From: an uncultured Pseudomonadota bacterium
GTDB lineage: Bacteria; Babelota; Babeliae; Babelales; Vermiphilaceae
Length of the DNA stretch: 64,000 bases
Assembly (NCBI GenBank): GCA_964553945.1
Contig: CAZKLV010000002.1
Location: 271,774 to 335,773 of the forward strand
Direction: 5' to 3'
This document shows positions 2,070-21,550 of the stretch, piece after piece. Under the pieces are notes generated by a model. That model had not been told where the DNA came from, ran no database searches, and worked only from the letters and a program-made list of their open reading frames with translations. A program made the position numbers and the translations under genes. Each line of letters starts with the position of its first letter. The first letter of the stretch is position 1.

Positions 2070-3188
2070 CTATTCTTCACTCAACTGCTCTTCATCTTCA
2101 TCTTGAGCCTCTTGCCCCGATTCCATCGGAACGAGCATGGCTTCTTTTACTTTTGCGTAAATTTCATTTGCAAGCGCTTTATCTTTTTTGAGCGCAATCA
2201 GTGCCTGATCTCGGCCCTGAGCTACTTTATTGCCTGCATATGAAATCCATGCACCAGATTTTTGCATTACTTCATAATGTAATGCTGCATCGAGCAAATC
2301 AAGCTCACGGCTAATTCCCTCAGTAAATAGAAGGTCAACTTCTACTCGTCTGAATGGAGGGGCAACCTTATTTTTCGCGACCTTCACGGCAATACGATTG
2401 CCAAAATGAATATCATTCTTTTTGAGGCTCGCTACACGGCGCACATCCAAGCGCAATGATGCATAGAATTTCAATGCTTTACCACCTGTCGTGGTTTCTT
2501 TATCCGCAAACGGAAGCGCATTAATCGTTTGGCGAATCTGGTTAATAAAAACCAAGACCGTTTTTGATTTATGCACAACCGGCGTTAACTTTCGCAATGC
2601 TTGAGACATCAAACGTGCTTGAAGACCCATATGAACATCGCCCATATCTCCTTCAAGCTCTGCTTTTGGCACCAAAGCTGCTACAGAGTCAACAACAATA
2701 ATATCAACTGCGCCGGAACGGACTAACATTTCTGCAATATCAAGTGCTTGTTCGCCATAATCTGGCTGAGAAATGATCAATTCATCAATGTTAATGCCAA
2801 GATTCTTCGCATGATTTGCATCTAGCGCATGTTCGGCATCAATAAATGCACAAATGCCACCATTTTTTTGCGCCTGAGCAATAGTATGTAAAGCGAGAGT
2901 TGTTTTACCAGATGCTTCAGGTCCGTAGATTTCAACTATACGCCCACGCGGCAAGCCGCCAACGCCCAACGCGTGATCAATAAGAATTGAACCGGTTGAA
3001 ATAGCCTCCACTTTATTGCCGCCAGTTTGACCCAAAAGCATAACAGCTCCGTTGCCATACTGTTTATCAATCTGAGAAAAGGTTACTTCAAGCGCCTTCT
3101 TTTTAAACTCACGTTCTTTTTCAAGTGATGCATCAAACGCAGGAATCATCGAGTCGTTCGCCGTACCTCTTGCTGTTTTACTTTTCAT
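2070..3188 (-). CDS. recA: recombinase RecA
   Basis: Walker A motif [16 protein letters not shown], plus FIDAEHALD and [20 protein letters not shown] motifs, and an acidic C-terminal tail. Confidence 0.97.
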
Positions 3189-3201
3189 ATTGTAATTTTC
3201 T

Positions 3202-5106
3202 TTACTGTAGATGCTGCATTAACGATTCATTAATTTCTATTCTAGCATTTCTCGCCAAAGAAGCAACAAATCCGAGGATTAGGTCCCCTCTGCGCTCTTG
3301 TTCAAGAGACCGAGTAATGCCTACTTCTTTTTGTTTGAAATCCGCTTGATTAATTGGCTCAATTTCCTCTAATCTGACGATAAATCCAGCTGTTTGGCCA
3401 TCATGGATAATGGTACTGCCGGCCTTTTCCATTTGTAACATTGCAGTCACAGGCACACCACGCTTAGAAAGCGCTTCAAAGCCTTCTCGTTTTTTGCTCG
3501 TTAACCAATCAGTTTTTTCAAGGGTTCCATGGGTAATCGAAGCTAATTCCTGAGTCGAAACTGTTGACGCTTTGTGTTTCATATCTTCAAGTAAGGTGGC
3601 AAGCTTTTTGCGAGCCTTATACTCGTAATAGTCGCTAAGCACCTGAGCACGAACTGCTCCAAAGTTTGGCGCGTATGATTGTTCAATATTATTTAATTGA
3701 ATGACATACCCAACCCCTTTATCAACATAGAATGCAACGCCATTTTCTTTAAGGCCAAAAAGCTTCTGTGCTTGTGCTGATGCATCTTTGGTTACATGCT
3801 CAAGCTTTTGAGATGTTGCCCCTTTTTTATGTGCAAGATCTGCAAGGGAAGCTGATTTTGATTCAGCAGTTCTGGTAATGCGTTTGAGATCATCTGTAAA
3901 TGAATCTTGGAACTTACGTTGAGCCATCATCTCTTTGATTTCTTGTTTGACCGCACTCAATGGTTTGAATGTACGATTTTTACGGTCAACGCGTTGCAAT
4001 AATTCATACCCATTATCAGTCGCAACAACTGGAGAAATATCTCCATTTTTAACGAGTGAAAATGAAGCTTGCTCAAATGTTGAACCATAATCACTCTCAT
4101 CGCGAGCAAAGAATGAAGTTAATTGACTCTTTTTAGCAAACTGTTCAGGATTTTTAATAAACTCCTGGCGAGCAGCTTCTGCTTGATTTTGATCAGGATA
4201 GATAATGCGACGAACCTGCACCTTAACTGGCTCATCCACATAAAGTTTCATTTTATTTTTTTCATAGTACGAACTAATCACCTCATCAGAAGGCTGTACT
4301 CCATACGCATCCGCCTTGAAGGTCCATACGGTACCAGATCGCTTTTCGGGAACCCAATAACGTTTGCTTTTAGTGTTTTCAAGATTAAAGAACTGCTCTA
4401 AATCAGCATCCTTCACTTCATTCTTCTTTTCCTGATTGATAAGGGTTTCAAGAGAAATGGTGACAATCGAATATTTTTTACCCACATATTCGGCAATATA
4501 TCGCTGTAACACATCAAACCTTGGCACGTAGACAGCTGAGCTTAATATCTCGAGCATAGTACGACGAACCAATGCGCGAGCAACTGCTTCTTCAAACTCA
4601 GCAATATTCATGCCACGTCGACGCAAATGCGCCTGAAGAGCTTCTCGATTAATACCACCGGCTTGATCAAAGACTTGCGGAGGAACAAGTCCCATCAACG
4701 ATTGTTCTCGCATGATAAACATACGATCTGCAAGTTTTTGAGTTATAAAATCTGACCCAATTTGAACCCCAAGCTCTTTACCCATTTGATCAAGAAGCTC
4801 CTGATCAACGAGTCCCTGATATGCAAGCGAATAGGGATCCATTGATATTCCTTGGGATTCAAAGAGCATTTGCGCATATGGACCATACTGCTCTTTTATA
4901 TATGCGATCCGTTCTTGTTCTTGCGCTACCTGTTGAGCAAATATACGATCGGAAATTTCTGAACCATTAACCATTATTGCCCAATTACCTTTGCCATCTT
5001 TTAATAGCATTGGCAGAATATAGCCAACTGCAAGTGCAAATAAAATTACCCACATTGCGTATCGAAGTGACTCACCTTTAAACTGTCTTCGTATCGTTGT
5101 AATCAT
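3202..5106 (-). CDS. PpiD/SurA-like periplasmic chaperone (degenerate parvulin PPIase)
   Basis: 634 aa with a single N-terminal TM segment ([19 protein letters not shown]) followed by a long soluble region with PpiD-like organisation. ATGA overlap with the upstream SPOR gene. Confidence 0.6.
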
Positions 5107-5768
5107 GACAATGTATCCTTTTCGCTTCTAACTATTCGTACACCACGTAACTTTTCTTCTTTGGTTATGCGAGCAACTACCGATTCAAGCTCCGCTTTAT
5201 CGGTATAATCTTGAGTAATCACTTGATACCAAGATCGAGTTTTCCCCTTTGATGACTTACTCGTCTTGGTTTCGACTTTTGCAGGAATCCCTTTTTTACA
5301 CAACTTTTGTGCAAACTTTTGAGCTTGCGCCATCGTTCCATATCCAGCAAGTTGCCCATGATGCACGGGCTCCGCATTTATTTGAACATCGTGCTTAACG
5401 ATCTGAGGCTCTGCATTTGGATCAATAGATTCAACCTGATCAATTATTTCTGGCTCAAGTTCCGATTCTGCATCAACCGCTGTCGCTATATCTGCTGGCG
5501 ATTCGGAATTTTGAGTAACCGTATCTTGAGTTGTCGGGGCTTCTGATTCGGAAAGCTCACACATAGAAGTATAAATACGATCGGCGAATGTCGATTGCTC
5601 AACACTCATACAAAACTGAGAGATAGCATTACTTTTGCCCCAGAAATATCCGGAAATGAATGTAATGAAAACAATGAAAAAACCAGCTGCCACAAGCAAA
5701 CTCGCTTGGCGTTTGGTCATTGAAAAAATAACCGATTGATCTTGAGTTGGTTCATTTTCGAATAACAT
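5103..5768 (-). CDS. SPOR-domain membrane protein
   Basis: One TM segment (LLVAAGFFIVFITFISGYFWG), an acidic linker, and a C-terminal SPOR-like block HHGQLAGYGTMAQAQKFAQKLCKKGIPAKVE...WYQVITQDY. The start is trimmed to the Met at 5768, 1 nt after the miaA stop. Confidence 0.6.
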   Translation of the reverse strand: MLFENEPTQDQSVIFSMTKRQASLLVAAGFFIVFITFISGYFWGKSNAISQFCMSVEQSTFADRIYTSMCELSESEAPTTQDTVTQNSESPADIATAVDAESELEPEIIDQVESIDPNAEPQIVKHDVQINAEPVHHGQLAGYGTMAQAQKFAQKLCKKGIPAKVETKTSKSSKGKTRSWYQVITQDYTDKAELESVVARITKEEKLRGVRIVRSEKDTLS

Positions 5769-5769
5769 A

Positions 5770-6741
5770 TTACACTCCGCCTGGCCACACTTTTTTAAAT
5801 GATGTTTCAATTTTAGTCACACAATCGCCATGTACAACATCAATCTCATTGATAATCGATTGTGAAAGATTGCTATCAGTGTACTCAGATAGGGCATCTT
5901 GTAAATCTTTTTGCAACGAACGCCAAAAAGTGAACTGTCGTTTTGCATAATTGCGAGTTTTAGTTTGGATTTTTTCAACCAATATTTTTTTATCGGTAAT
6001 TGTTTTTTTTGTGCCAAGGTAATAAAGAATATCATCATATCCAATAATCTTTTTCTCAAGGATAAATTGCTCCCACGGTGAACCTTGCAATTGACTCACT
6101 TCGGCCTTCCAACCTGCGTCTAACATATCCTTTACTCGTTGATCTATGCGAGCATATAATTTTTCACGTTCACGAGTTAAAAAATAGAGCGCAAAAGGAG
6201 CAATTGGCTCGAATTTTGGTTGATATTCCGAGGGCTTTATACCAGTTGAATACCATATATCAAGCGCCCGACGGATACGATATAAGTCATTGCGATTAAT
6301 TGAGTAAGCGCGAACCGGATCAATGTGCTTCAAATGATCCCAAAGCTCTTTTTCTTGTATGTGCGCATAGCCATCACTTTCATGAACACTTGCACCAGAC
6401 GGTGGAAAGAATAATGATTTGAGATAGAATCCAGATCCGCCTACTAAAATAGGAGTTTTTTTACGCGCCCATATATTTTCAAGTAAGGGCATTAAAAGAG
6501 CTCGATACTCAACAACAGTTAAGTTGCGTGGCGTATCAATTACATCAAAAAGATGGTGTGGAATGGTACATTTTTTCCAGTCTGGTTTTGCGGTACCAAT
6601 AGTTAATGGGGTATAAAGCGCACCCATATCCATATTGATAATTTCACCGTTTACACGATTGGACAATTCAAGAGCGCAATCAGTTTTGCCTACCCCAGTG
6701 GGGCCATATAAAATAATGAATGGTTTTATTTTTTTCTTCAT
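5770..6741 (-). CDS. miaA: tRNA dimethylallyltransferase
   Basis: P-loop ILYGPTGVGKTDCALELS, plus YTPLTIGTAKP and LVGGSGFYLKSL, which are MiaA signatures. Confidence 0.9.
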   Translation of the reverse strand: MKKKIKPFIILYGPTGVGKTDCALELSNRVNGEIINMDMGALYTPLTIGTAKPDWKKCTIPHHLFDVIDTPRNLTVVEYRALLMPLLENIWARKKTPILVGGSGFYLKSLFFPPSGASVHESDGYAHIQEKELWDHLKHIDPVRAYSINRNDLYRIRRALDIWYSTGIKPSEYQPKFEPIAPFALYFLTREREKLYARIDQRVKDMLDAGWKAEVSQLQGSPWEQFILEKKIIGYDDILYYLGTKKTITDKKILVEKIQTKTRNYAKRQFTFWRSLQKDLQDALSEYTDSNLSQSIINEIDVVHGDCVTKIETSFKKVWPGGV

Positions 6742-6776
6742 AGAGGTACTTATAATTCAACACTGCTTAAAAGGTG

Positions 6777-6812
6777 AAAAATAGGGCTTGAATACTCAAA
6801 CCCTATTCTTTT
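6777..6812 (-). terminator. hairpin downstream of carD (weak intrinsic terminator)
   Basis: aataggg/ccctatt 7-bp stem with a 14-nt loop and a T-run on the minus strand, 20 nt after the carD stop. Confidence 0.4.
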
Positions 6813-6831
6813 GATTACACGAATTCTATAA

Positions 6832-7371
6832 TTATGCGTTTTTATCTTTTATAAAAGAATCTTTGGATCCAATCTTACTTACATATGTCCTGAGTTCCTG
6901 AGCCGCATGCTCCTCAGCAACATTTTTAACGAGTGCAATTTCCTGCGCAAGTAGCATTTCCGTTTGATTCAATAGACTTTTTTCACCAAACGTTAGTTCC
7001 TTTGATTCTTCTGTTCGCTTTAAATCTCGGTAAATTTCGCAAATATCACGCAAATCTCCAGATCGAATTTTGCTTTGATATTCTTTATTTCGCTTGTTCC
7101 AATTGGTGGCCAAGGTTTCGGGATGGGCCGGTTGTCGCTGCATAGGTTCGGTTAAAATTTTAAACACATTATTAATGCGCTCTTGCGAGCTTATTTTACG
7201 GATCCCTACGGCTTCAACATTGGTGACCGGAACAAGAATTGTCATATCTTTATTGAGAAACTTCAATTCATAAAAGGTGAACTTTTCAGTGCCGATCTTT
7301 TTTTCAATGATGCGATTTATGAATGCGACTCCGTGGCCTGGGTAAACAACTCGTTCATTTTGCTCAAACAT
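6832..7371 (-). CDS. carD: CarD/CdnL-family RNA-polymerase-binding transcription regulator
   Basis: MFEQNERVVYPGHGVAFINRIIEKKIGTEKFTFYELKFLNKDMTILVPVTNVEAVGIRK is the CarD N-terminal (TRCF-RID-like) domain. The start is trimmed from 7434 to the Met at 7371. Confidence 0.8.
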   Translation of the reverse strand: MFEQNERVVYPGHGVAFINRIIEKKIGTEKFTFYELKFLNKDMTILVPVTNVEAVGIRKISSQERINNVFKILTEPMQRQPAHPETLATNWNKRNKEYQSKIRSGDLRDICEIYRDLKRTEESKELTFGEKSLLNQTEMLLAQEIALVKNVAEEHAAQELRTYVSKIGSKDSFIKDKNA

Positions 7372-7563
7372 GCGCACCCCTTTGAATAAGGCATAGCAGA
7401 CGTTTATAGAAAAACTTCTTTTACCCAGCTCCAATAGTATATCACAATTTTTACTTTCTGATGATGCTAAAAATAGTCCAACGTATAAAATAATGATTTT
7501 GGCTATAAATAAAGGCTTTTTGGGGTATACTAAGAATATAAATTAGTTAGGGAGCGGTATTAA

Positions 7564-8922
7564 ATGATACCTTTTTATACAAACTTTCGCCATACATTTA
7601 CGTGGGTAACCCTCGAATCATTGACCTATTACGGGTTACTTTCATTGCATCAAATAGTCCTTTTTCAATATACCTCGCCTGAGGTTTATGGGGTCATCGG
7701 TACCACCTATGCATTAAGTTACCTCTGTGTTTATTTTTTGATTGCTGCTTTTGATAAAGCGCTAGCTCCTTTTTTTGCACGATTCACCACAGGTCAGGAT
7801 TCGGTATGGTCACTCGTGCGATATCAAGCGATCCCAACCTATGCAGTCGCCTCCATTATCCTTTCGCTTCTTTATCTTGCCAAACCATACTTGGCAACCA
7901 AGTTCAACTATTTTGATTATATTTCCGACTCACTTTTCCTATTGCTTGCGGCCAAAATACAGATTGAAATGACTCGCAAGGGTTTCAAAACATTCTTAAA
8001 CCTGACCCATCAATCCCATGTAGCGGCCGTAGCCGAGATCATTGCTATGCTCATTTACATAGTGGTAGTCTGGTCGCTTTTCATACTCACTGGCACTATA
8101 ACTTTAATGACCGTCTTTGTTCCGCTGGTAGTTGCTATTTTAATTTCGACTCTCATTATGATATGGCGGGTTGCTGGCTGGTACCACACATTACCTCTCT
8201 GTGGCGAACCGATTACTCGCGCTACTCATCTGCAATTTGCCAAAAATCGAATCGCAACCATGGGCTTTCATATGAACCGTCTCTTCTTCACAGCAGACTT
8301 TTTGGTTCCTTTCTTTGCCTACAAGTTCGGGCTCGCTGCTGCCGGTATCCTCAAATTAGCAAGCAAGATAGTTTCAACTTTCACGATTATTATCAGACGA
8401 ATTTTTGAAACTTCATCAAACGTCATGATGGCCAATGTTCGTGAATGCACTTTAGAAGATCGCATCTCTATGTTTTCATTCATCACCAATTGGATCAATC
8501 AGGTGATCTATGCACTCATCATCTTTTTTGCGATCAATCATCGCTGGTTATTCATGACCCCGCAAATAGCTTCGGACCAATTGGGTATTGCCGAGATTGC
8601 ATATGCCTATCTTTTTTTAAGTTTGACCGACAACCTCTTTATTGCATATGAACAATTTTATATTGCACAAGAAAAAGCATACTATCTTCTTGCGCTCAAC
8701 ATCATGAGCTTGCTCACTTTTATCGGTGCGACTTTGATGCTTCACACTCTTTCACCGATTACCACCATTACCTTGCTTGCATCTATTCGATTAATCGCCT
8801 GTATTTTACTGGGTTTTTACTCATACGCACAATGGCGCATCAAACCATCCTTACAGATCAAAATGACTCCAATACTAGGAGCAACTGCCATATCGATTCT
8901 CGCATTTTTGATTTTTGGATAA
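7564..8922 (+). CDS. polytopic membrane protein, MOP/Wzx-like flippase fold suspected
   Basis: 452 aa with at least 12 hydrophobic segments. It is a paralogue of 9518-10918 (shared FLVPFFxYxxG block). Confidence 0.45.
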   Translation: MIPFYTNFRHTFTWVTLESLTYYGLLSLHQIVLFQYTSPEVYGVIGTTYALSYLCVYFLIAAFDKALAPFFARFTTGQDSVWSLVRYQAIPTYAVASIILSLLYLAKPYLATKFNYFDYISDSLFLLLAAKIQIEMTRKGFKTFLNLTHQSHVAAVAEIIAMLIYIVVVWSLFILTGTITLMTVFVPLVVAILISTLIMIWRVAGWYHTLPLCGEPITRATHLQFAKNRIATMGFHMNRLFFTADFLVPFFAYKFGLAAAGILKLASKIVSTFTIIIRRIFETSSNVMMANVRECTLEDRISMFSFITNWINQVIYALIIFFAINHRWLFMTPQIASDQLGIAEIAYAYLFLSLTDNLFIAYEQFYIAQEKAYYLLALNIMSLLTFIGATLMLHTLSPITTITLLASIRLIACILLGFYSYAQWRIKPSLQIKMTPILGATAISILAFLIFG

Positions 8923-11924: not shown

Positions 11925-12352
11925 AAAAATAAAATCAGAGAGAAGCATGGTATTAAAATTGGTAGATCGAGAAGTGCGCGCGCCCTGTTTCCCTTTTGAG
12001 GGTTCTTTTTTTATCTGTTCTTGAGTAGTAATGATGTTATATTCTTTTGACCATAATGGTTTTTAAACAATAATCAAAATAATGAGTAGATAGAGGTTCA
12101 AGAGAAGAATAAGAATATACGTGTATTGGTACGTATACGCGTGTATGTGTTTAAGTTACGTTCGATTGGTTCGTGTACTTATCATATGTACGCGTTATGA
12201 GCATTGACTACTTATACTAACAACTCCTATATGATCACCCTTCTTTATACTCTGCATACACATGAGTACTATTGGACCTCATTACTCCCTACTGTGCATA
12301 CTACAACAATAATTACGGTGACATAGTCTTGAGAAATGATAAATAATTAAAA

Positions 12353-12390
12353 AAACGCCTTTAAAGCCGGCGTTTCGCAAGAAACGCCGG
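12353..12390 (-). terminator. two overlapping GC-rich hairpins; the distal one is followed by a T-run on the minus strand
   Basis: ccggcgttt-cgcaag-aaacgccgg is a 9-bp stem (12367-12390). It is mutually exclusive with aaacgcc/ggcgttt (12353-12375), which is followed by TTTTT on the minus strand. Confidence 0.4.
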
Positions 12391-12654
12391 GGTGTTTAAG
12401 GGGTAGTTTTGTAATTCCTTTTCTCTTATTTTTTTTCTTGTCTTGTAATATGGCATGAGAGTGAGCAGCATCAAGGATTACTATCTCTAGTATTCGTATT
12501 ATATTGTTAGAATGAGTAATTCAGAAAATTGATAATAATAGACTCAATGGGGGATCGAAATGGGCTTTAGAATAAATGGTTTACTCGATTGCGATTTTAA
12601 TATTTTTAAATTGATTATTTCTTCAATCAATTCCGATTGTTTTCTTCTTAAAAA

Positions 12655-12775
12655 CACGAAGCCGCAGGCTTCACCCCCCATCTCGTGCCCCCATGCTCGA
12701 GTGGGGTGAGAGCCGGAGGCGGAGTGGTCTGCGCGCCCGCGCGGCAACGGGCAACCGGACGCAAGGATATAAAAA
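12655..12775 (-). other. GC-rich structured island in a gene-free AT-rich region (candidate small RNA or decayed GC-rich palindromic repeats)
   Basis: About 120 nt, much more GC-rich than its surroundings. Contains internal stems cccca/tgggg and gcccg/cgggc. It ends on the minus strand with gaagcc-tgc-ggcttc followed by GTGTTTTT. No match to tmRNA, RNase P, SRP or tRNA signatures that I could recognise. Confidence 0.3.
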
Positions 12776-12883
12776 TAATGACGGCTTCAATATTCAAAAA
12801 AAATAGTTCAGAAAAAAATTCCTATGAACACAATGCTCACACGGGGAATTTGTAAATTATCGGACTTGAATATTCTATTTGTG

Positions 12884-13618
12884 TTATCTTAAGAGGGAAA
12901 CCAATTCATCGATATATTCAATCACTTGAGCTGCAGGACTTCCTTGAAATAATCGCTCATTGGTGGAATTTAGATAATAAAGAGCATAATCATCATCCGA
13001 TTTTACAACAGAGGCGAGCACCCAATGCCCGCCAGCATTGATCACAAAATGCACAACATGATTTTGCAAAATAAGCTCAATGAGCGGTTGTTTTGACGTA
13101 ACATCCTGAAATGAAACAAGCTCCGGCTCGCTCAAATAAATCACATGAAAAGGCATATTATATTTAGCGCGAACATCTTTCTCAGCAATTTCCAATTCAT
13201 GTGGTTCAGCAGGTAAAATACCTTCTCCATTGAGCAATAATTTGAATGAGGCAGATTGCGTCATGATAATTGCAAAACAACATTCGGCATAATAGCGAGT
13301 CGCCTCAGTAGTAATTGGTAATCCTTCAATGCATTGCCGTTCTAGAGCATAGGCATTTGCAAGAGAATTGAATCCACAAGAACTATATATTTGTTGATGA
13401 GAAATAAGATGATGAAGAGGTGTCTTCGTTTTAACAGAGTGTGCAATACTCAATCCATGAGATGCCTCAAAAGCATCGAGCGATTTAACGCGTGCCAAAA
13501 TCATCGCAGTATTGCCAAACCACTTATTTCGCAAACCATTACCTGAGTTTTCCATCGCACAAGCATACGGCGCAATCAGAATAAGATATGAAAAAATAAT
13601 GCGAAATAGACAGTTCAT
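12884..13618 (-). CDS. leader-bearing Josephin-like papain-fold cysteine protease (putative deubiquitinase)
   Basis: Leader MNCLFRIIFSYLILIAPYACAM. Cys motif HQQIYSSCGFNSLANA and His motif GGHWVLASVVKSDDDYALYYLNSTN. The start is trimmed to the Met at 13618. Confidence 0.6.
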   Translation of the reverse strand: MNCLFRIIFSYLILIAPYACAMENSGNGLRNKWFGNTAMILARVKSLDAFEASHGLSIAHSVKTKTPLHHLISHQQIYSSCGFNSLANAYALERQCIEGLPITTEATRYYAECCFAIIMTQSASFKLLLNGEGILPAEPHELEIAEKDVRAKYNMPFHVIYLSEPELVSFQDVTSKQPLIELILQNHVVHFVINAGGHWVLASVVKSDDDYALYYLNSTNERLFQGSPAAQVIEYIDELVSLLR

Positions 13619-13854
13619 AGATAGGACCCCCATTTATGATTATTACATATAGTATCAGCATAGATCAATAAGCCCTACCTGTAAAAAGCCCTTTTTCACC
13701 TTGAATACTATCAACCCTGGGCCGAACCTGGCACCTCAGATATAATTGACAAATATAAAATATAGTATAAATTTATAATATCTGCCTCTTGAATGATTTT
13801 AAGGGGAGAATAGTATTAATAATGGAGCCTAAAACAGATTCAAATGGAGGTCCA

Positions 13855-15164: not shown

Positions 15165-15353
15165 ATGGACCCTCTGCAGAAATTAAAACATATTGCATCA
15201 CCATCACTTGCTCAATGTTATCAAGAGTATAAAAACAATCCTCCTTGCATGAAAGTTGATCGCCAAAATCATGCTGAGTGTTGTGGATGCAAAGAGCCAT
15301 GCTGCACCATACAAATACCAGCCATACCAAAAGACCAAAAGGAGCGAGAATGA
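15165..15353 (+). CDS. possible small Cys-rich protein (62 aa), ATGA-coupled to the WD40 gene
   Basis: Open frame MDPLQKLKH...ECCGCKEPCCTIQ with 7 Cys. Its TGA overlaps the ATG at 15350. No homology recognised, so it may be non-coding. Confidence 0.25.
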   Translation: MDPLQKLKHIASPSLAQCYQEYKNNPPCMKVDRQNHAECCGCKEPCCTIQIPAIPKDQKERE

Positions 15354-16825: not shown

Positions 16826-16874
16826 AAAATGCACATAGCCAATAGATAAAAAAATCAAAATCCACAAAACAATT

Positions 16875-16908
16875 AAATTCCCCAGCAAATCTAACTGCTG
16901 GGGAATTT
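16875..16908. terminator. bidirectional hairpin between convergent genes
   Basis: Perfect 12-bp stem aaattccccagc/gctggggaattt with a 10-nt loop, between the WD40 (+) and C11 (-) stops. Confidence 0.6.
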
Positions 16909-16932
16909 AGTTTCATATAAAAATGAAGATCT

Positions 16933-18192
16933 CTAACTATTAATATACCCATCAAGCATCTGCGCCCATACGCTATCTTGGCCCCATTGAGTTGATGCAT
17001 AATCTGAATCAAGATACGCATTGCGCTCAAAATAAAAACTAATTCCAGAAGCACGTGGAAAATCTGATCCTTTTACTTGCGCAAGAACCGTTGATTTGAG
17101 TGCTTTGACAGCTGCCGCAATCGCATTATTGAGTTGCTTCAGTAATGCTTTGTCACTCACTTTTGCTTTACCAAGATTTGCTTTGAGATTATTCAAAAAA
17201 TCACCAATATCGATAAAACTATTCTCTGTGAAGAAGGTACAACGATTTGGATCGGCGCTTGCTTGAATTGCGAGTTTAATAACATCCGCATCTTTTGAGC
17301 TCAAAAATGATAGAATAACAGTTGCAACATGATCAAGCGCTGCTTTAAAGCCGGCAATTTGAGATAAATCGATTGCAGAAAGCGTGTAATCGGTTGTAAT
17401 GCTGTTATATAATGCGCCGTAATCTTTCACCATATCTTGCGCCATCTTGACAGCTTTAAGATTCGGCTTTGATGCCAAATTCAATGCAGTATCATACGGA
17501 TACCCTTGGCCTGGAATTGTTTCTTCAGATGCAACCAAGTATTTTGCATAAGAGCTGGCCGCATAAGCAACTTCAACATTTGCCATTAAACATGCATCGA
17601 ATGCGACAATATCAACTTTTTTACCGCCGCGTAATTGCACCGCTTGCTCAAGAACCGCGATCAAATCTTGATCGGTAAAATACGATCCGGTTGTATCATC
17701 ATAGCAAAATGCGCGATCCGCCGGAGTGCCCCACGGCTTGCCAAAGAATGTACTCACGAGCCCATTACGATTTAATGGTCCAGAGCCATGGTTCCAGAAA
17801 ACTATCACAAAATTATCTGACGGAAACTTTGACGTTGCCCATGTAACCGCATCGATTGCTGTTTGCGCAGCACCGCTATCCTTATCCATATCAGGGCCAT
17901 CTTGTAGAGCCTGGCCCTTTTGAACAACCAATGCACGAGTCCACTTAGAAGAATTATCTTTTGAGCTGACGTAGGCAAGAATATTCACATTTTGATTCGA
18001 TCCAATCTTTTGCATCTCTTCTAAATCCAAATGAATGAAATCGGCCAAACTATTATCGCCCGCAATATAGACAAGCACCGTTGCTTGTTTTTTGGCAAGC
18101 GGCGATGCTACATCTTTGCGTTGCCATGATAACGCAAATGCGTTCATTGAAATGAGCAAACCAATGCTCAATGATATTTGTTTTTTGTACAT
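16933..18192 (-). CDS. secreted clostripain-family (C11) cysteine peptidase
   Basis: His motif FVIVFWNHGSGP and Cys motif DIVAFDACLMANVE form the C11 catalytic dyad context. N-terminal leader MYKKQISLSIGLLISMNAFA. GGGAG precedes the ATG at 18192. Confidence 0.8.
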   Translation of the reverse strand: MYKKQISLSIGLLISMNAFALSWQRKDVASPLAKKQATVLVYIAGDNSLADFIHLDLEEMQKIGSNQNVNILAYVSSKDNSSKWTRALVVQKGQALQDGPDMDKDSGAAQTAIDAVTWATSKFPSDNFVIVFWNHGSGPLNRNGLVSTFFGKPWGTPADRAFCYDDTTGSYFTDQDLIAVLEQAVQLRGGKKVDIVAFDACLMANVEVAYAASSYAKYLVASEETIPGQGYPYDTALNLASKPNLKAVKMAQDMVKDYGALYNSITTDYTLSAIDLSQIAGFKAALDHVATVILSFLSSKDADVIKLAIQASADPNRCTFFTENSFIDIGDFLNNLKANLGKAKVSDKALLKQLNNAIAAAVKALKSTVLAQVKGSDFPRASGISFYFERNAYLDSDYASTQWGQDSVWAQMLDGYINS

Positions 18193-18276
18193 ATGTGGCT
18201 CCCAGAAAAGAAATGAAACATTTTGTACAGATAATGTGATAAATTTCATAAAGTGACCGCAATAGTTTTGATAGGA

Positions 18277-19347
18277 TCAACAAAAAATATCTCGAAATAC
18301 AAAAGTTAGCCCAGTTGCTTTTGAAAGTTGCGCCCCAATTGCATATTGAACAATGCATGCATTCAATGCTCTCTTTGCAGAAGCTATATTTTTTCTCAAT
18401 TGCCCGTATATCGATTTACCTGCGATTTCTGCTCGTGCAATCTGCGATTGCAGATTGGCTAAAAAATGTCCAAGGTCCAACCGACTTTGTTCCCCGAAGA
18501 AAGTACAATTGCTACAGCAAGAACTTTCGATTAACATTTGTTGCAACATACTCTTGGCACCCTTTAATATTTCATGAACCGAAAGAACAGTCTTATCCAT
18601 TAGCTCTGATAATCTTTGTACCTTGGAAAGATCTATTGCGCAGAGCGAATAGTCACTTCGGATTTGTTCATATCTCTCTTCATATGCATTGCACATATCA
18701 AATGCCATTCTGCCAGCACAGAAGAAAACATCTTTTACCGCATATTTTAATGCCGCAAGATAAGGAAACCAATCGCTCGATTTATACCCCTCAGATGCAA
18801 CCATGAACTTTGCGCAAGGAGCCAACATACGCGCTATCTCCAGACTTGCCATCATATCTGCATCAAATGCAACTAGATCTATCATCGTGCCTCGCACAGC
18901 AAAAAGATACGAGACGATTTGCTGGATTTGCTCGGCGGCAAGGGGCGATCCTCGTGATGATGCACAAAAAACCAAAACAAACTTCTCCGAAGGAAACTTT
19001 TCATGCGCCCAGCGGCAAGCATTGATTCCATTGTTCACCCAAGACTCTTCAACATCAATATTTTCTCGATCCTCAAAGAGGGAAGCCTTATCGCCAATTG
19101 GAGCCTGAATCACTTTTCCCGCACCATTCATTAATGCAGAATAAACTAAGACGTTAACACTTTCAGTTGCAGCAACTTTTTGCAATTCTTTACAAATCAT
19201 TTGGACATAATCAAGCGGAGTGTCTTGCGAAATATAAATCAAAATGGTGACTTGTTTTATCGGACAAGCAGTATTGGTATCTACACACCCAGAAGCGGCA
19301 AAGAAAACAATTTGAAAAAGACCAAAAACAACCACCTTAATATTCAT
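18277..19347 (-). CDS. C11-like pseudo-peptidase (both catalytic residues substituted)
   Basis: Collinear with 16933-18192, but the His motif reads FVLVFCASSRGSP and the Cys motif reads DLVAFDADMMASLE. The leader has a possible lipobox, FFAASGC. Confidence 0.7.
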   Translation of the reverse strand: MNIKVVVFGLFQIVFFAASGCVDTNTACPIKQVTILIYISQDTPLDYVQMICKELQKVAATESVNVLVYSALMNGAGKVIQAPIGDKASLFEDRENIDVEESWVNNGINACRWAHEKFPSEKFVLVFCASSRGSPLAAEQIQQIVSYLFAVRGTMIDLVAFDADMMASLEIARMLAPCAKFMVASEGYKSSDWFPYLAALKYAVKDVFFCAGRMAFDMCNAYEERYEQIRSDYSLCAIDLSKVQRLSELMDKTVLSVHEILKGAKSMLQQMLIESSCCSNCTFFGEQSRLDLGHFLANLQSQIARAEIAGKSIYGQLRKNIASAKRALNACIVQYAIGAQLSKATGLTFVFRDIFC

Positions 19348-19523: not shown

Positions 19524-19660
19524 ATCATTAATCCCAGTTGATATCTCACCTGAAAAACCCTATAATTATAAGCAACAAACAAGTGCATTCAATTTTAGGG
19601 GGATGCATAAAAAAAATAAATCCGAAACTCAGATCATCATATAAAAAGAGGTACATATCT

Positions 19661-21550
19661 ATGGCAAAAATTATCGGTATTGATTTGGGAACAACCAACT
19701 CTTGCGTATCCTTCATGGAAGGTGGAGTCGCAAAGGTTATTCCAAACAAAGAAGGTGATAACACCACCCCTTCGGTCGTGGCGTTCACCAAAGACGGCAA
19801 ACGGTTGGTCGGTGTTTTGGCAAAGCGCCAAGCGATTACCAACCCTGAAAATACCATATTTTCAGCAAAACGCCTGATCGGACATAAATTTGAAGAGGTC
19901 CAAGCCGAAACGAAGCGCCTTCCTTATAAAGTTGTCCGTCGCGAGAATGGAGATTGTGCAATCGAAGCACAAGGAAAATTGTATAGTCCACAAGAAATTT
20001 CAGCAGCCGTTTTGAGCTACCTCAAACAAGCAGCGGAAGATTACCTTGGCGAACCGGTAACCCAAGCGGTTATTACCGTTCCAGCCTACTTCAATGACCA
20101 ACAACGCCAAGCAACCAAAGATGCAGGTAGAATTGCCGGCCTAGACGTCAAACGTATCATCAACGAACCAACCGCTGCGGCACTTGCCTACGGCTTTGAT
20201 AAAAAGAAAAGCGGTAAAGTTGCGGTCTTTGACTTTGGTGGTGGAACATTTGATATTTCAATTCTTGAAATATCAGCTGACGGTGTAATTGAAGTCAAAT
20301 CAACCAATGGCGATACTCACCTTGGTGGCGATGATATCGATTCACTCATCATCGATTTCTTGGTTAGCGAATTCAAACGCGAACAAGGCATTGATCTACA
20401 CTCTGATAAAATGGCACTCCAACGCCTCAAAGAAGCTGCCGAAAAAGCAAAAAAAGAACTTTCAAGCATGCCTGAAGTTGAAATTAACTTGCCATACATC
20501 ACAGCGGATGCAACTGGCCCGAAGCATTTAATCGTAAAACTATCGCGCGCAAAACTCGAATCATTGTGTTCAGATATTTTCCGCCGCTTACTCGAACCAT
20601 GCAAAAAAGCACTTGCCGATGCGAAGATGAATGCAAGTGAAGTCGATCAAGTAATTTTAGTTGGCGGTTCAACTCGTATGCCAAAAGTACAACAATTGGT
20701 TAAAGACTTCTTTGGTAAAGAACCAAACAAATCGGTTAATCCTGATGAAGTAGTTGCCGATGGTGCAGCAATTCAAGGTGGCGTACTCACTGGCGAAGTA
20801 ACTGACGTGCTTTTACTTGATGTTACTCCACTTTCTCTTGGCATCGAAACTATGGGCGGCATTGCAACAAAATTAATTGAACGCAATACCACGATTCCAA
20901 CTCGCAAATCACAAATATTTTCAACTGCTGAACCAAATCAAACGGCAGTTGATATTCGCGTGGTTCAAGGTGAACGAGAGTTTGCAAAAGACAATAAACT
21001 CTTGGGCCAATTCCGCCTCGAAGGTATTCCTGCAGCTCCACGTGGCGTGCCACAAATCGAAGTAACTTTTGATATTGATGCGAATGGCATTGTACACGTA
21101 TCAGCTAAAGATAAAGCAACCAATAAAGAACAAAAAATTGCTATCACTTCAGGTAGCGGCCTTTCAAAAGAAGAAATCGAAAAAATGGTACAAGATGCGA
21201 AAATTCACGAAGCTGAAGATAAAGCAGCTCGTGAAGCGGTCGAAAAACGCAATCGGCTCGATAGTACTATTTTGGAAGTTGAAAAAACTCTCACCGAGCA
21301 CAAAGAAAAATTGAGCGCGGATGAGGTAAGCAAAACAGAAGCAGCTCTTGAAAAAGCAAAACAAGCTCTTAAGGACCATGCAAATAATCCAGAAGAGCTC
21401 GAGAAGGCTACGCAAGAATTGATTCAAGCTTCGCATAAAGTTGCTGAGATTCTGTATAGCCAAGCGCAAGCTTCACAAACTCAAAGCCAAGGCCAATCAG
21501 AAGAAAGCAAGCCCGAAGCTGATCCGATTGATGCTGAAATCAATAATTAA
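19661..21550 (+). CDS. dnaK: molecular chaperone DnaK (Hsp70)
   Basis: [28 protein letters not shown]-type motif ([14 protein letters not shown]) and [21 protein letters not shown] precedes the ATG at 19661. The upstream extension to 19538 was rejected. Confidence 0.97.

Follow-up and report, generated by a model that had tools for sequence, protein, structure and literature searches.

A dyad-less paralogue beside an intact C11 peptidase gene at the dnaK locus of an uncultured Babeliales bacterium

The window analyzed here is a stretch of 64,000 nucleotides (nt; positions 271,774 to 335,773 of contig CAZKLV010000002.1, assembly GCA_964553945.1) from an uncultured amoeba-associated Babeliales (Dependentiae) bacterium, whose assembly measures 1.47 Mb and is 96.7% complete. 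Next to dnaK it carries two adjacent minus-strand genes of clostripain-type (family C11) peptidases: gene B and, directly downstream of it, gene A (Table 1). The original prediction, made from the letters of the window, held that A is active and that B is a catalytically dead paralogue, collinear with A along its whole length and retained rather than decaying. The motif blocks that it named are all present, in A (WNHGSG, FDACLM, DYTLSAIDLSQ and CTFFTENSFIDIGDFLNNL) as well as in B ((CA)SSRGS, FDADMM, DYSLCAIDLSK and CTFFGEQSRLDLGHFLANL).

Table 1. Features of the C11 gene pair and its surroundings, in window positions. A slash marks a cleavage site; aa, amino acids; S1, the S1 substrate pocket; AF2, AlphaFold2.
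Feature	Positions	Strand	Basis
Terminator-like hairpin, 15 pairs, 24 nt past the stop of A	16874..16909	-	consensus scan only
Gene A, downstream intact C11 peptidase, 419 aa	16933..18192	-	PF03415, PDB sequence matches, orthologues
A: S1 Asp199 and catalytic Cys201 (FDACLM)	17590..17598	-	aligned to FDAC of 6n9j, 6mzo and 9cip
A: linker PLNR...ADR/AFCYDDTT	17689..17778	-	alignment to 9cip
A: catalytic His135 (WNHGSG)	17788..17790	-	aligned to W+HG+G of solved C11 proteases
A: putative signal peptide MYKKQISLSIGLLISMNAFA/LSW, ending AFA/L	18133..18192	-	read by eye, conserved in orthologues
B-A spacer, 84 nt, with GGGAG 7-11 nt before the start of A	18193..18276	-	sequence and scan
Gene B, upstream C11 paralogue, dyad lost, 356 aa	18277..19347	-	open reading frame list, PF03415, AF2 model, Foldseek, tree
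B: Asp162-Ala-Asp164 (FDADMM), S1 Asp kept, nucleophile Cys replaced by Asp (GAT)	18856..18864	-	alignments; just past predicted strand 156-162
B: CASSRGSPL, junction of the ~30-residue linker deletion	18940..18966	-	29-residue BLASTP gap; deletion in all B-types
B: Ser130 (TCA) in place of the catalytic His	18958..18960	-	alignments; just past predicted strand 120-128
B: Thr43 at the GDN Asn position (PmC11 Asn50)	19219..19221	-	column 97% Asn in intact homologues
B: putative signal peptide with lipobox-like end MNIKVVVFGLFQIVFFAASG/C21 (FAASG/C)	19285..19347	-	read by eye from the sequence
Promoter-like TTGAAT-16-TATAAT in the divergent dnaK-B gap	19565..19592	-	consensus scan; site count no higher than in shuffled sequence
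dnaK, divergent neighbour, synteny anchor in all related contigs	19661..21550	+	tblastn, 88-98% identity on L038-L045 and L048

The C11 gene pair beside dnaK

Gene A encodes, by its sequence, an intact C11 peptidase of the ordinary kind. It matches the Pfam model Peptidase_C11 (PF03415) over model positions 1-357 of 359 with 176.2 bits (cut-off 25.8), and it matches the sequences of the solved C11 proteases 6n9j, 6mzo, 9cip (clostripain), 5dyn and 3uws. As had been proposed, the His and Cys of the dyad are both kept, aligning to these solved proteases, and at Arg160 (17713-17715) the segment ADR/AFCYDD aligns with the clostripain cleavage site LNR/AICWDD. Clostripain Arg190 and PmC11 Lys147 are known activation cleavage sites, while Asp177 and Asn50 of PmC11 bind substrate (PMC4850288). 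Orthologues of A with 59-69% identity occur on about 10 contigs. Although the open reading frame of A was listed as 16933-18249 (438 aa, minus strand), its start is most likely the ATG at 18192 (MYKKQ...) rather than that at 18249, because GGGAG lies 7-11 nt upstream of it and the orthologues begin MYKK or MFKK.

Gene B belongs to the same family. It matches PF03415 with 56.5 bits over model positions 121-283 (cut-off 25.8), it aligns with A by BLASTP at 31% identity over 365 columns (E = 7e-55), and the two are sisters in a tree with support 100/97. The collinearity claimed for them holds approximately and not for the whole length: just past the His position about 30 residues are missing from B, so that the activation linker is absent in full, Arg-Ala site included, and B also lacks the last ~25 residues of A. 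Within the shared part, both dyad residues are replaced, as the original prediction had stated, at positions that both the sequence profile and the predicted structure establish. Across the other C11 homologues of 20 related genomes, the column of Ser130 holds His in 27/27 and that of Asp164 holds Cys in 26/27; in a 79-sequence alignment, the 75 non-B sequences have 100% His and 96% Cys at the two columns. A profile built from B and A-type sequences places fcahGsG on WSHGTG and FdadlM on FDACYM of 6mzo. Alignment to C11 structures had been set beforehand as a check, and it gives no shift that would restore a dyad in B. Nor are the replacements read errors, because CAT to TCA needs three base changes and TGT to GAT two. 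The Asn of the GDN motif is also gone, the B-types (B and its orthologues, below) having T, K or G at this column.

The predicted structure agrees. The AlphaFold2 model of B, computed from the 79-sequence alignment, has a mean pLDDT (per-residue confidence) of 86.4 and a pTM (predicted template-modelling score) of 0.87, and a Foldseek search with it against the PDB returns C11 structures at all of ranks 1-11, with template-modelling (TM) scores of 0.57-0.67 to full-length chains. In the model, Ser130 and Asp164 follow strands 120-128 and 156-162, which is the clan CD arrangement of the dyad. When compared with the known C11 proteases, namely PmC11 from Parabacteroides merdae, clostripain and Bacteroides C11 enzymes (3UWS, 9CIP, 6N9J, 6NAG, 6MZO, 5DYN), A agrees in its His/Cys dyad, its S1 Asp and an Arg-Ala site that aligns with the clostripain activation cleavage. 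B shares PF03415 with them, and the alpha/beta/alpha sandwich and C-terminal domain are predicted for it too, but it differs in its Ser and Asp for the dyad, its missing activation linker and its missing GDN motif. Judged from these sequence features, B cannot work as this type of cysteine peptidase.

The relationship is a distant one, and it showed only in part of the searches: phmmer with B alone against PDB sequences gave no match, the profile of B and A-type sequences being needed, and NCBIfam holds no model that matches B. A substitute nucleophile was considered in Cys128, two residues before the His position and present in three B-types, and rejected, since the fourth has His there and the residue lies inside a predicted strand. 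Mature B is also rich in cysteine, with 14 in 336 residues versus 3 in A and 6-8 in other B-types. These counts suggest that an exported protein has gained many cysteines, with disulfides or metal binding as possibilities.

Both proteins are likely to be exported, judging from their N-terminal signals. The window's B would probably be a membrane lipoprotein anchored by lipid at Cys21: by eye, FAASG/C21 fits the usual lipobox pattern, and the bacterium's own genome encodes Lgt (165 bits) and LspA (103 bits). The lipobox Cys is found in the window's B only and is missing from the other B-types.

B and A are probably co-transcribed from the dnaK-B gap, an operon suggested by consensus matches. 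The consensus scan gave no terminator-like or promoter-like site in the 84-nt spacer, and the hairpin past A is the probable end of the transcript. The two genes share a reading frame across 18193-18279, where a TGA and nine sense codons precede the ATG at 18249; a read-through fusion was considered and rejected, the shared frame being probably chance (probability 1 in 3), because on a related contig, L038, the genes stand in different frames.

The pair is surrounded by genes for ankyrin, WD40 and collagen-like proteins. A small open reading frame of ~62-66 aa at 15165-15320 (plus strand), upstream of the WD40 gene, is conserved with 55-69% identity (tblastn) in nine further related contigs, where it usually sits just 3' of the C11 gene and on the opposite strand; this conservation supports its being a real gene. 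The genome also carries a third C11 gene (G000:C1:324061-325269, minus strand; a 502-aa frame) with an intact dyad, which belongs to a different C11 clade carried by most of the Babeliales genomes searched.

B-type genes on related contigs

A word-indexed protein search with B alone returned B itself and two distant matches only, and 40 related GTDB genomes held no B-type: nothing in them was nearer to B than A is, and the best outside match was an ordinary active C11. The orthologues came to light only with an exhaustive HMMER search, which recovered P0004 (363 aa, 224 bits, compared with 169 bits for B against A) and a fragment, P0006. Further B-types are P0153, from a protein search, and P0236, intact with 389 aa, from cluster membership. 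Counting P0006 and P0236 as one lineage, the window included, these make four B-types. In a maximum-likelihood tree the four form one clade (100/99) inside a 100/100 clade that otherwise consists of the ten A orthologues, which places the duplication near the base of a narrow group.

Common to all B-types are the linker deletion, an insertion of two residues following 'AxK' and the absence of the Cys nucleophile. What replaces the dyad differs from one to the next. At the His position and the Cys position, respectively, the window's B has Ser and Asp, the B-type of L038 (P0004) has His and Asp, that of the Logan ERR12037361 contig (P0153) has His and Pro, and that of L037/L048 (P0006/P0236) has Arg and Ser. 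These data bear on the idea that B is a substrate trap or decoy, holding Arg/Lys ligands or host protease inhibitors uncleaved in the old cleft. The window's B does retain the S1 Asp (FDAD) and the overall predicted fold, as such a trap would. However, Asn stands in for the S1 Asp in 2/4 B-types, none of them has the GDN Asn, the IPGxG loop and the Cys position are both variable, and conservation among the B-types is lowest in the catalytic domain. Because of the S1 and GDN replacements and the variable Cys position, substrate trapping via the S1 pocket is unlikely as a conserved function of B, and we regard the decoy as a whole as very improbable.

The dnaK locus itself occurs in three states, A alone in seven lineages, a B-type alone in one and both in three; absence of A or B was scored at the locus only, these being metagenome contigs. 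The order dnaK, B, A is found in the window, in L038 and in the Logan ERR12037361 contig. A stands alone, with dnaK ~250 nt upstream, in L039, L040, L041, L042/L043, L044 and L045, and in L046 it is also alone, with a pair of YafQ/ParE-type toxin-antitoxin genes (L046 154-687) upstream instead of dnaK. tblastn showed no remnants of B at the A-only loci. In L048 the order is dnaK, B-type, p66, p370, with the B-type (873-2042) in the slot of A and no A at the locus. On L037 the B-type lies at 3687-4765, and an extra gene of 1163 aa without a Pfam match is inserted downstream (4975-8466). The L048/L037 lineage thus has no C11 gene at its dnaK locus other than the dead B-type, which has kept an A-like signal and N-terminus as well as the C-terminal tail.

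The A proteins from loci with and without B interleave in the tree, and a single with-B A shares 87% identity with two of the without-B ones. A minimum of two separate losses of B, along with one loss of A from the locus, therefore has to be assumed. Since B is absent from seven close relatives, any function it has is dispensable.

The distribution speaks to the possibility that A has a dedicated partner in B, a lipid-anchored pseudo-enzyme that might dock onto the secreted active C11, inhibit it, activate it or be processed by it, in the manner of trypanosome MCA4 with MCA3 or of cFLIP with caspase-8. B lies directly upstream of A, 84 nt away and with no terminator-like site found in between, and the B-then-A order recurs on two other contigs. 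The lipobox-like signal of B next to the ordinary signal of A would also parallel the membrane-bound pseudopeptidase MCA4 and the active MCA3 of trypanosomes (PMC3220528), although among the B-types only the window's copy has the lipobox. Other observations run the opposite way: in the L048/L037 lineage a B-type occupies exactly this syntenic slot and A is missing from the locus, seven relatives have A without B, one of these A proteins being 87% identical to a with-B A, and no column of A separates the with-B from the without-B lineages (a comparison of 3 versus 7, of low power). To our knowledge, the C11 enzymes studied so far are monomers. PmC11 is one of them (PMC4850288), which leaves no known C11 dimer interface for such a partner to use. 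Loci with A only or B only, and the failure of any residue of A to track B, speak against an obligate A-B partnership, and the partner idea as such has weak support. B's place before A, the 84-nt gap and a lipobox signal beside a plain one would nevertheless suit a partner held at the membrane, and we keep a dedicated partnership as a tentative minority view. Likewise, the role that the original prediction gave to B, as regulator, inhibitor or trap of its neighbour, is a hypothesis for which the circumstantial evidence is mixed.

Selection on the B-types

Since the set of GTDB relatives holds no B-type, ratios of non-synonymous to synonymous substitutions (dN/dS, omega) were computed on the metagenome contigs. 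Between the window and L038, DnaK (91% aa identity) has dN 0.06 and dS 1.1 (omega ~0.06), A (67% aa identity) has dN 0.26 and dS ~2.0, and B (37% aa identity) has dN 0.62 at a saturated dS of ~2.2. Less distant pairs give dN 0.40, dS 1.19 and omega ~0.34 for the B-types of L038 and L037; dN 0.20, dS 1.41 and omega ~0.14 for A of L038 and L042; and dN 0.047, dS 0.45 and omega ~0.11 for A of L042 and L044. The B-types thus evolve at dN/dS ~0.3 versus ~0.12 for A, and these alignments indicate that they are under purifying selection that is relaxed about threefold relative to A. The comparison of A with B is uninformative, as dS is saturated at ~2 and YN00 fails.

The relaxation is uneven. Identity among B-types, when set against that among A proteins, is 0.55 versus 0.78 in the N-lobe, 0.60 versus 0.71 in the middle and 0.53 versus 0.57 in the C-terminal domain. 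The relaxation sits in the catalytic domain, and the C-terminal domain is as conserved in the B-types as in A. All B-types also agree in seven residues that no A protein has at these positions: Cys111, Tyr202, Phe209, Glu223, Ala304, Arg305 and Lys319.

The claim that B is retained and not decaying is borne out by its orthologues on four other contigs, whose frames are open except for one probable assembly error. That exception is the B-type of L037, whose frameshift we considered as decay and rejected: the contig's dnaK is also ridden with frameshifts, and an intact copy, ~96% identical, is present on L048. Along L037 1400-3400 (ERZ25039473:contig_172611) there are many frameshifts in dnaK, an essential gene, so the gene breaks on this contig should not be taken as pseudogenes. 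With dN/dS of the B-types at ~0.3, neither neutral evolution of the dead copy nor genuine frameshifts were found in relatives.

It may still be asked whether the window's own B is a functionless relic heading for loss, its open frame being a temporary survivor. The copy has the longest branch among the B-types and has additionally lost its His, and B has been lost repeatedly in relatives. The sequence itself argues otherwise. The 356-codon frame is intact where 23.5 stops are expected from shuffles of B, none of which stayed open (0/20000); in a neutral simulation over 1-2 substitutions per site, identity falls to 8-17%, 20-23 stops appear and 0/500 runs remain open. Identity to the orthologue at the three codon positions is 0.56/0.60/0.38, the Shine-Dalgarno sequence and signal peptide of B are preserved, and the orthologues are under purifying selection. 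By a rough estimate, not computed, an intact frame would leave room for no more than a brief neutral phase close to the present, below about 0.05 substitutions per site. We see the relic as very improbable.

A probably exported pseudo-peptidase and its possible role

We propose that B is an exported, non-catalytic binding protein, accessory to a C11 protease system, and a pseudo-peptidase that is retained but dispensable; from the sequence evidence, we put the probability of this reading at roughly 0.6. On this view, the secreted C11 gene next to dnaK, A, would have duplicated in tandem near the root of a narrow clade of Babeliales and so produced B. Losses early in the B lineage would have removed the Cys nucleophile, the GDN motif and the ~30 residues of activation linker, and the window's B would later have lost the His as well. 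What B appears to keep is the C11 fold, the export signal (here with a lipobox) and a C-terminal domain constrained like that of A. Its role as an exported protein may be binding or scaffolding through surfaces beyond the old active site, namely the C-terminal domain and the seven B-specific residues, and as an accessory it may, for example, bind the active enzyme or the proteins that this enzyme acts on, and not catalyze. Genes that are useful but dispensable are common among the host-interaction genes of intracellular symbionts.

Several points weigh against this reading. Seven close relatives carry A without B at the locus. For the binding role and for the weight placed on the C-terminal domain, the argument comes from conservation patterns only, and the dN/dS values are rough, dS being saturated in most pairs. 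The window's B is moreover the most diverged B-type, with an end branch of 1.66 versus 0.27-0.57, and it keeps 60 of the 156 A-invariant columns versus 84-95 in the other B-types; a recent slide of B to neutrality in this genome is accordingly conceivable, if improbable on the evidence of its frame and codons. A more specific proposal is that the B-types are a previously undescribed and lineage-specific class of Dependentiae C11 pseudo-peptidases re-purposed via the C-terminal domain, here as a lipid-anchored receptor or scaffold capturing active C11 or host targets at the surface. This we consider rather doubtful.

Dead protease paralogues are common and rarely understood, and among those of clan CD are important regulators, cFLIP and MCA4 for instance. 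Some stand beside active relatives or act with them as regulators or receptors: for cFLIP with caspase-8, and for CspA/CspC of C. difficile, roles in heterodimerization or signaling have been demonstrated, unlike for B, which is known from sequence. The closest functional analogue of B in its own clan, so far as the comparison carries, is MCA4 of Trypanosoma brucei, a lipidated clan CD pseudopeptidase processed by the active MCA3 (PMC3220528). Like B, MCA4 is an inactive clan CD paralogue: it has kept the fold of a peptidase, exists alongside active paralogues and has been retained by selection, and its lipid anchor would have a counterpart in the probable anchor of the window's B. It differs in being eukaryotic, in belonging to family C14B rather than C11, in having Ser at the Cys position and in being processed by MCA3 (PMC3220528), whereas B-types also occur without an adjacent active copy. 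Among prokaryotes, the cyanobacterial pseudo-orthocaspases (PMC6426788) form a conserved and phylogenetically coherent clan CD group in which both dyad residues are likewise replaced, His-Cys having become Tyr-Ser. There, in family C14, the replacement is fixed; in the B-types it varies, with Ser, His or Arg at the His position and Asp, Pro or Ser at the Cys position, a variation suggesting that selection has ceased to act on the site itself.

Further dead homologues turned up among the C11 sequences. A 6.9-kb contig (L049, Logan SRR28285705) carries tandem C11 homologues at 2352-3563 and 3700-5073 that both lack the dyad, P0077 having Val and Asp (FDSDSM) and P0139 Ala and Ser (FDASRM), and no intact C11 lies within it. 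In the alignment of the 150 best representatives, both dyad residues are absent from four full-length proteins (P0077, P0139, P0073 and P0111), and the His is also absent from P0085 and P0125. Another Babeliales family has a four-gene tandem C11 array (L018; G035:C19, ~12237-13647, minus strand), one member of which, a 470-aa frame, has Asn for the catalytic Cys (DANLM) and keeps the His; from its sequence, this looks like an independent dead copy inside the array.

Pseudo-enzymes are known in clan CD, and what we describe is a new occurrence in family C11. Our literature search found no described C11 pseudo-peptidase: the C11 papers found cover active enzymes only, and a full-text search for Dependentiae with clostripain gave nothing. 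The practical value is modest: the bacterium has not been cultured, relatives can do without the gene, and its function is inferred. If the receptor or scaffold proposal were true, the pair would be the first two-component bacterial C11 system made of an active and a dead member, like MCA4/MCA3 in trypanosomes. The locus also draws attention to the poorly understood C-terminal domain of C11 proteins, which would still matter once catalysis is gone. Among close relatives, the dnaK-adjacent site offers a compact natural experiment, with A alone, A plus B, and a B-type alone.

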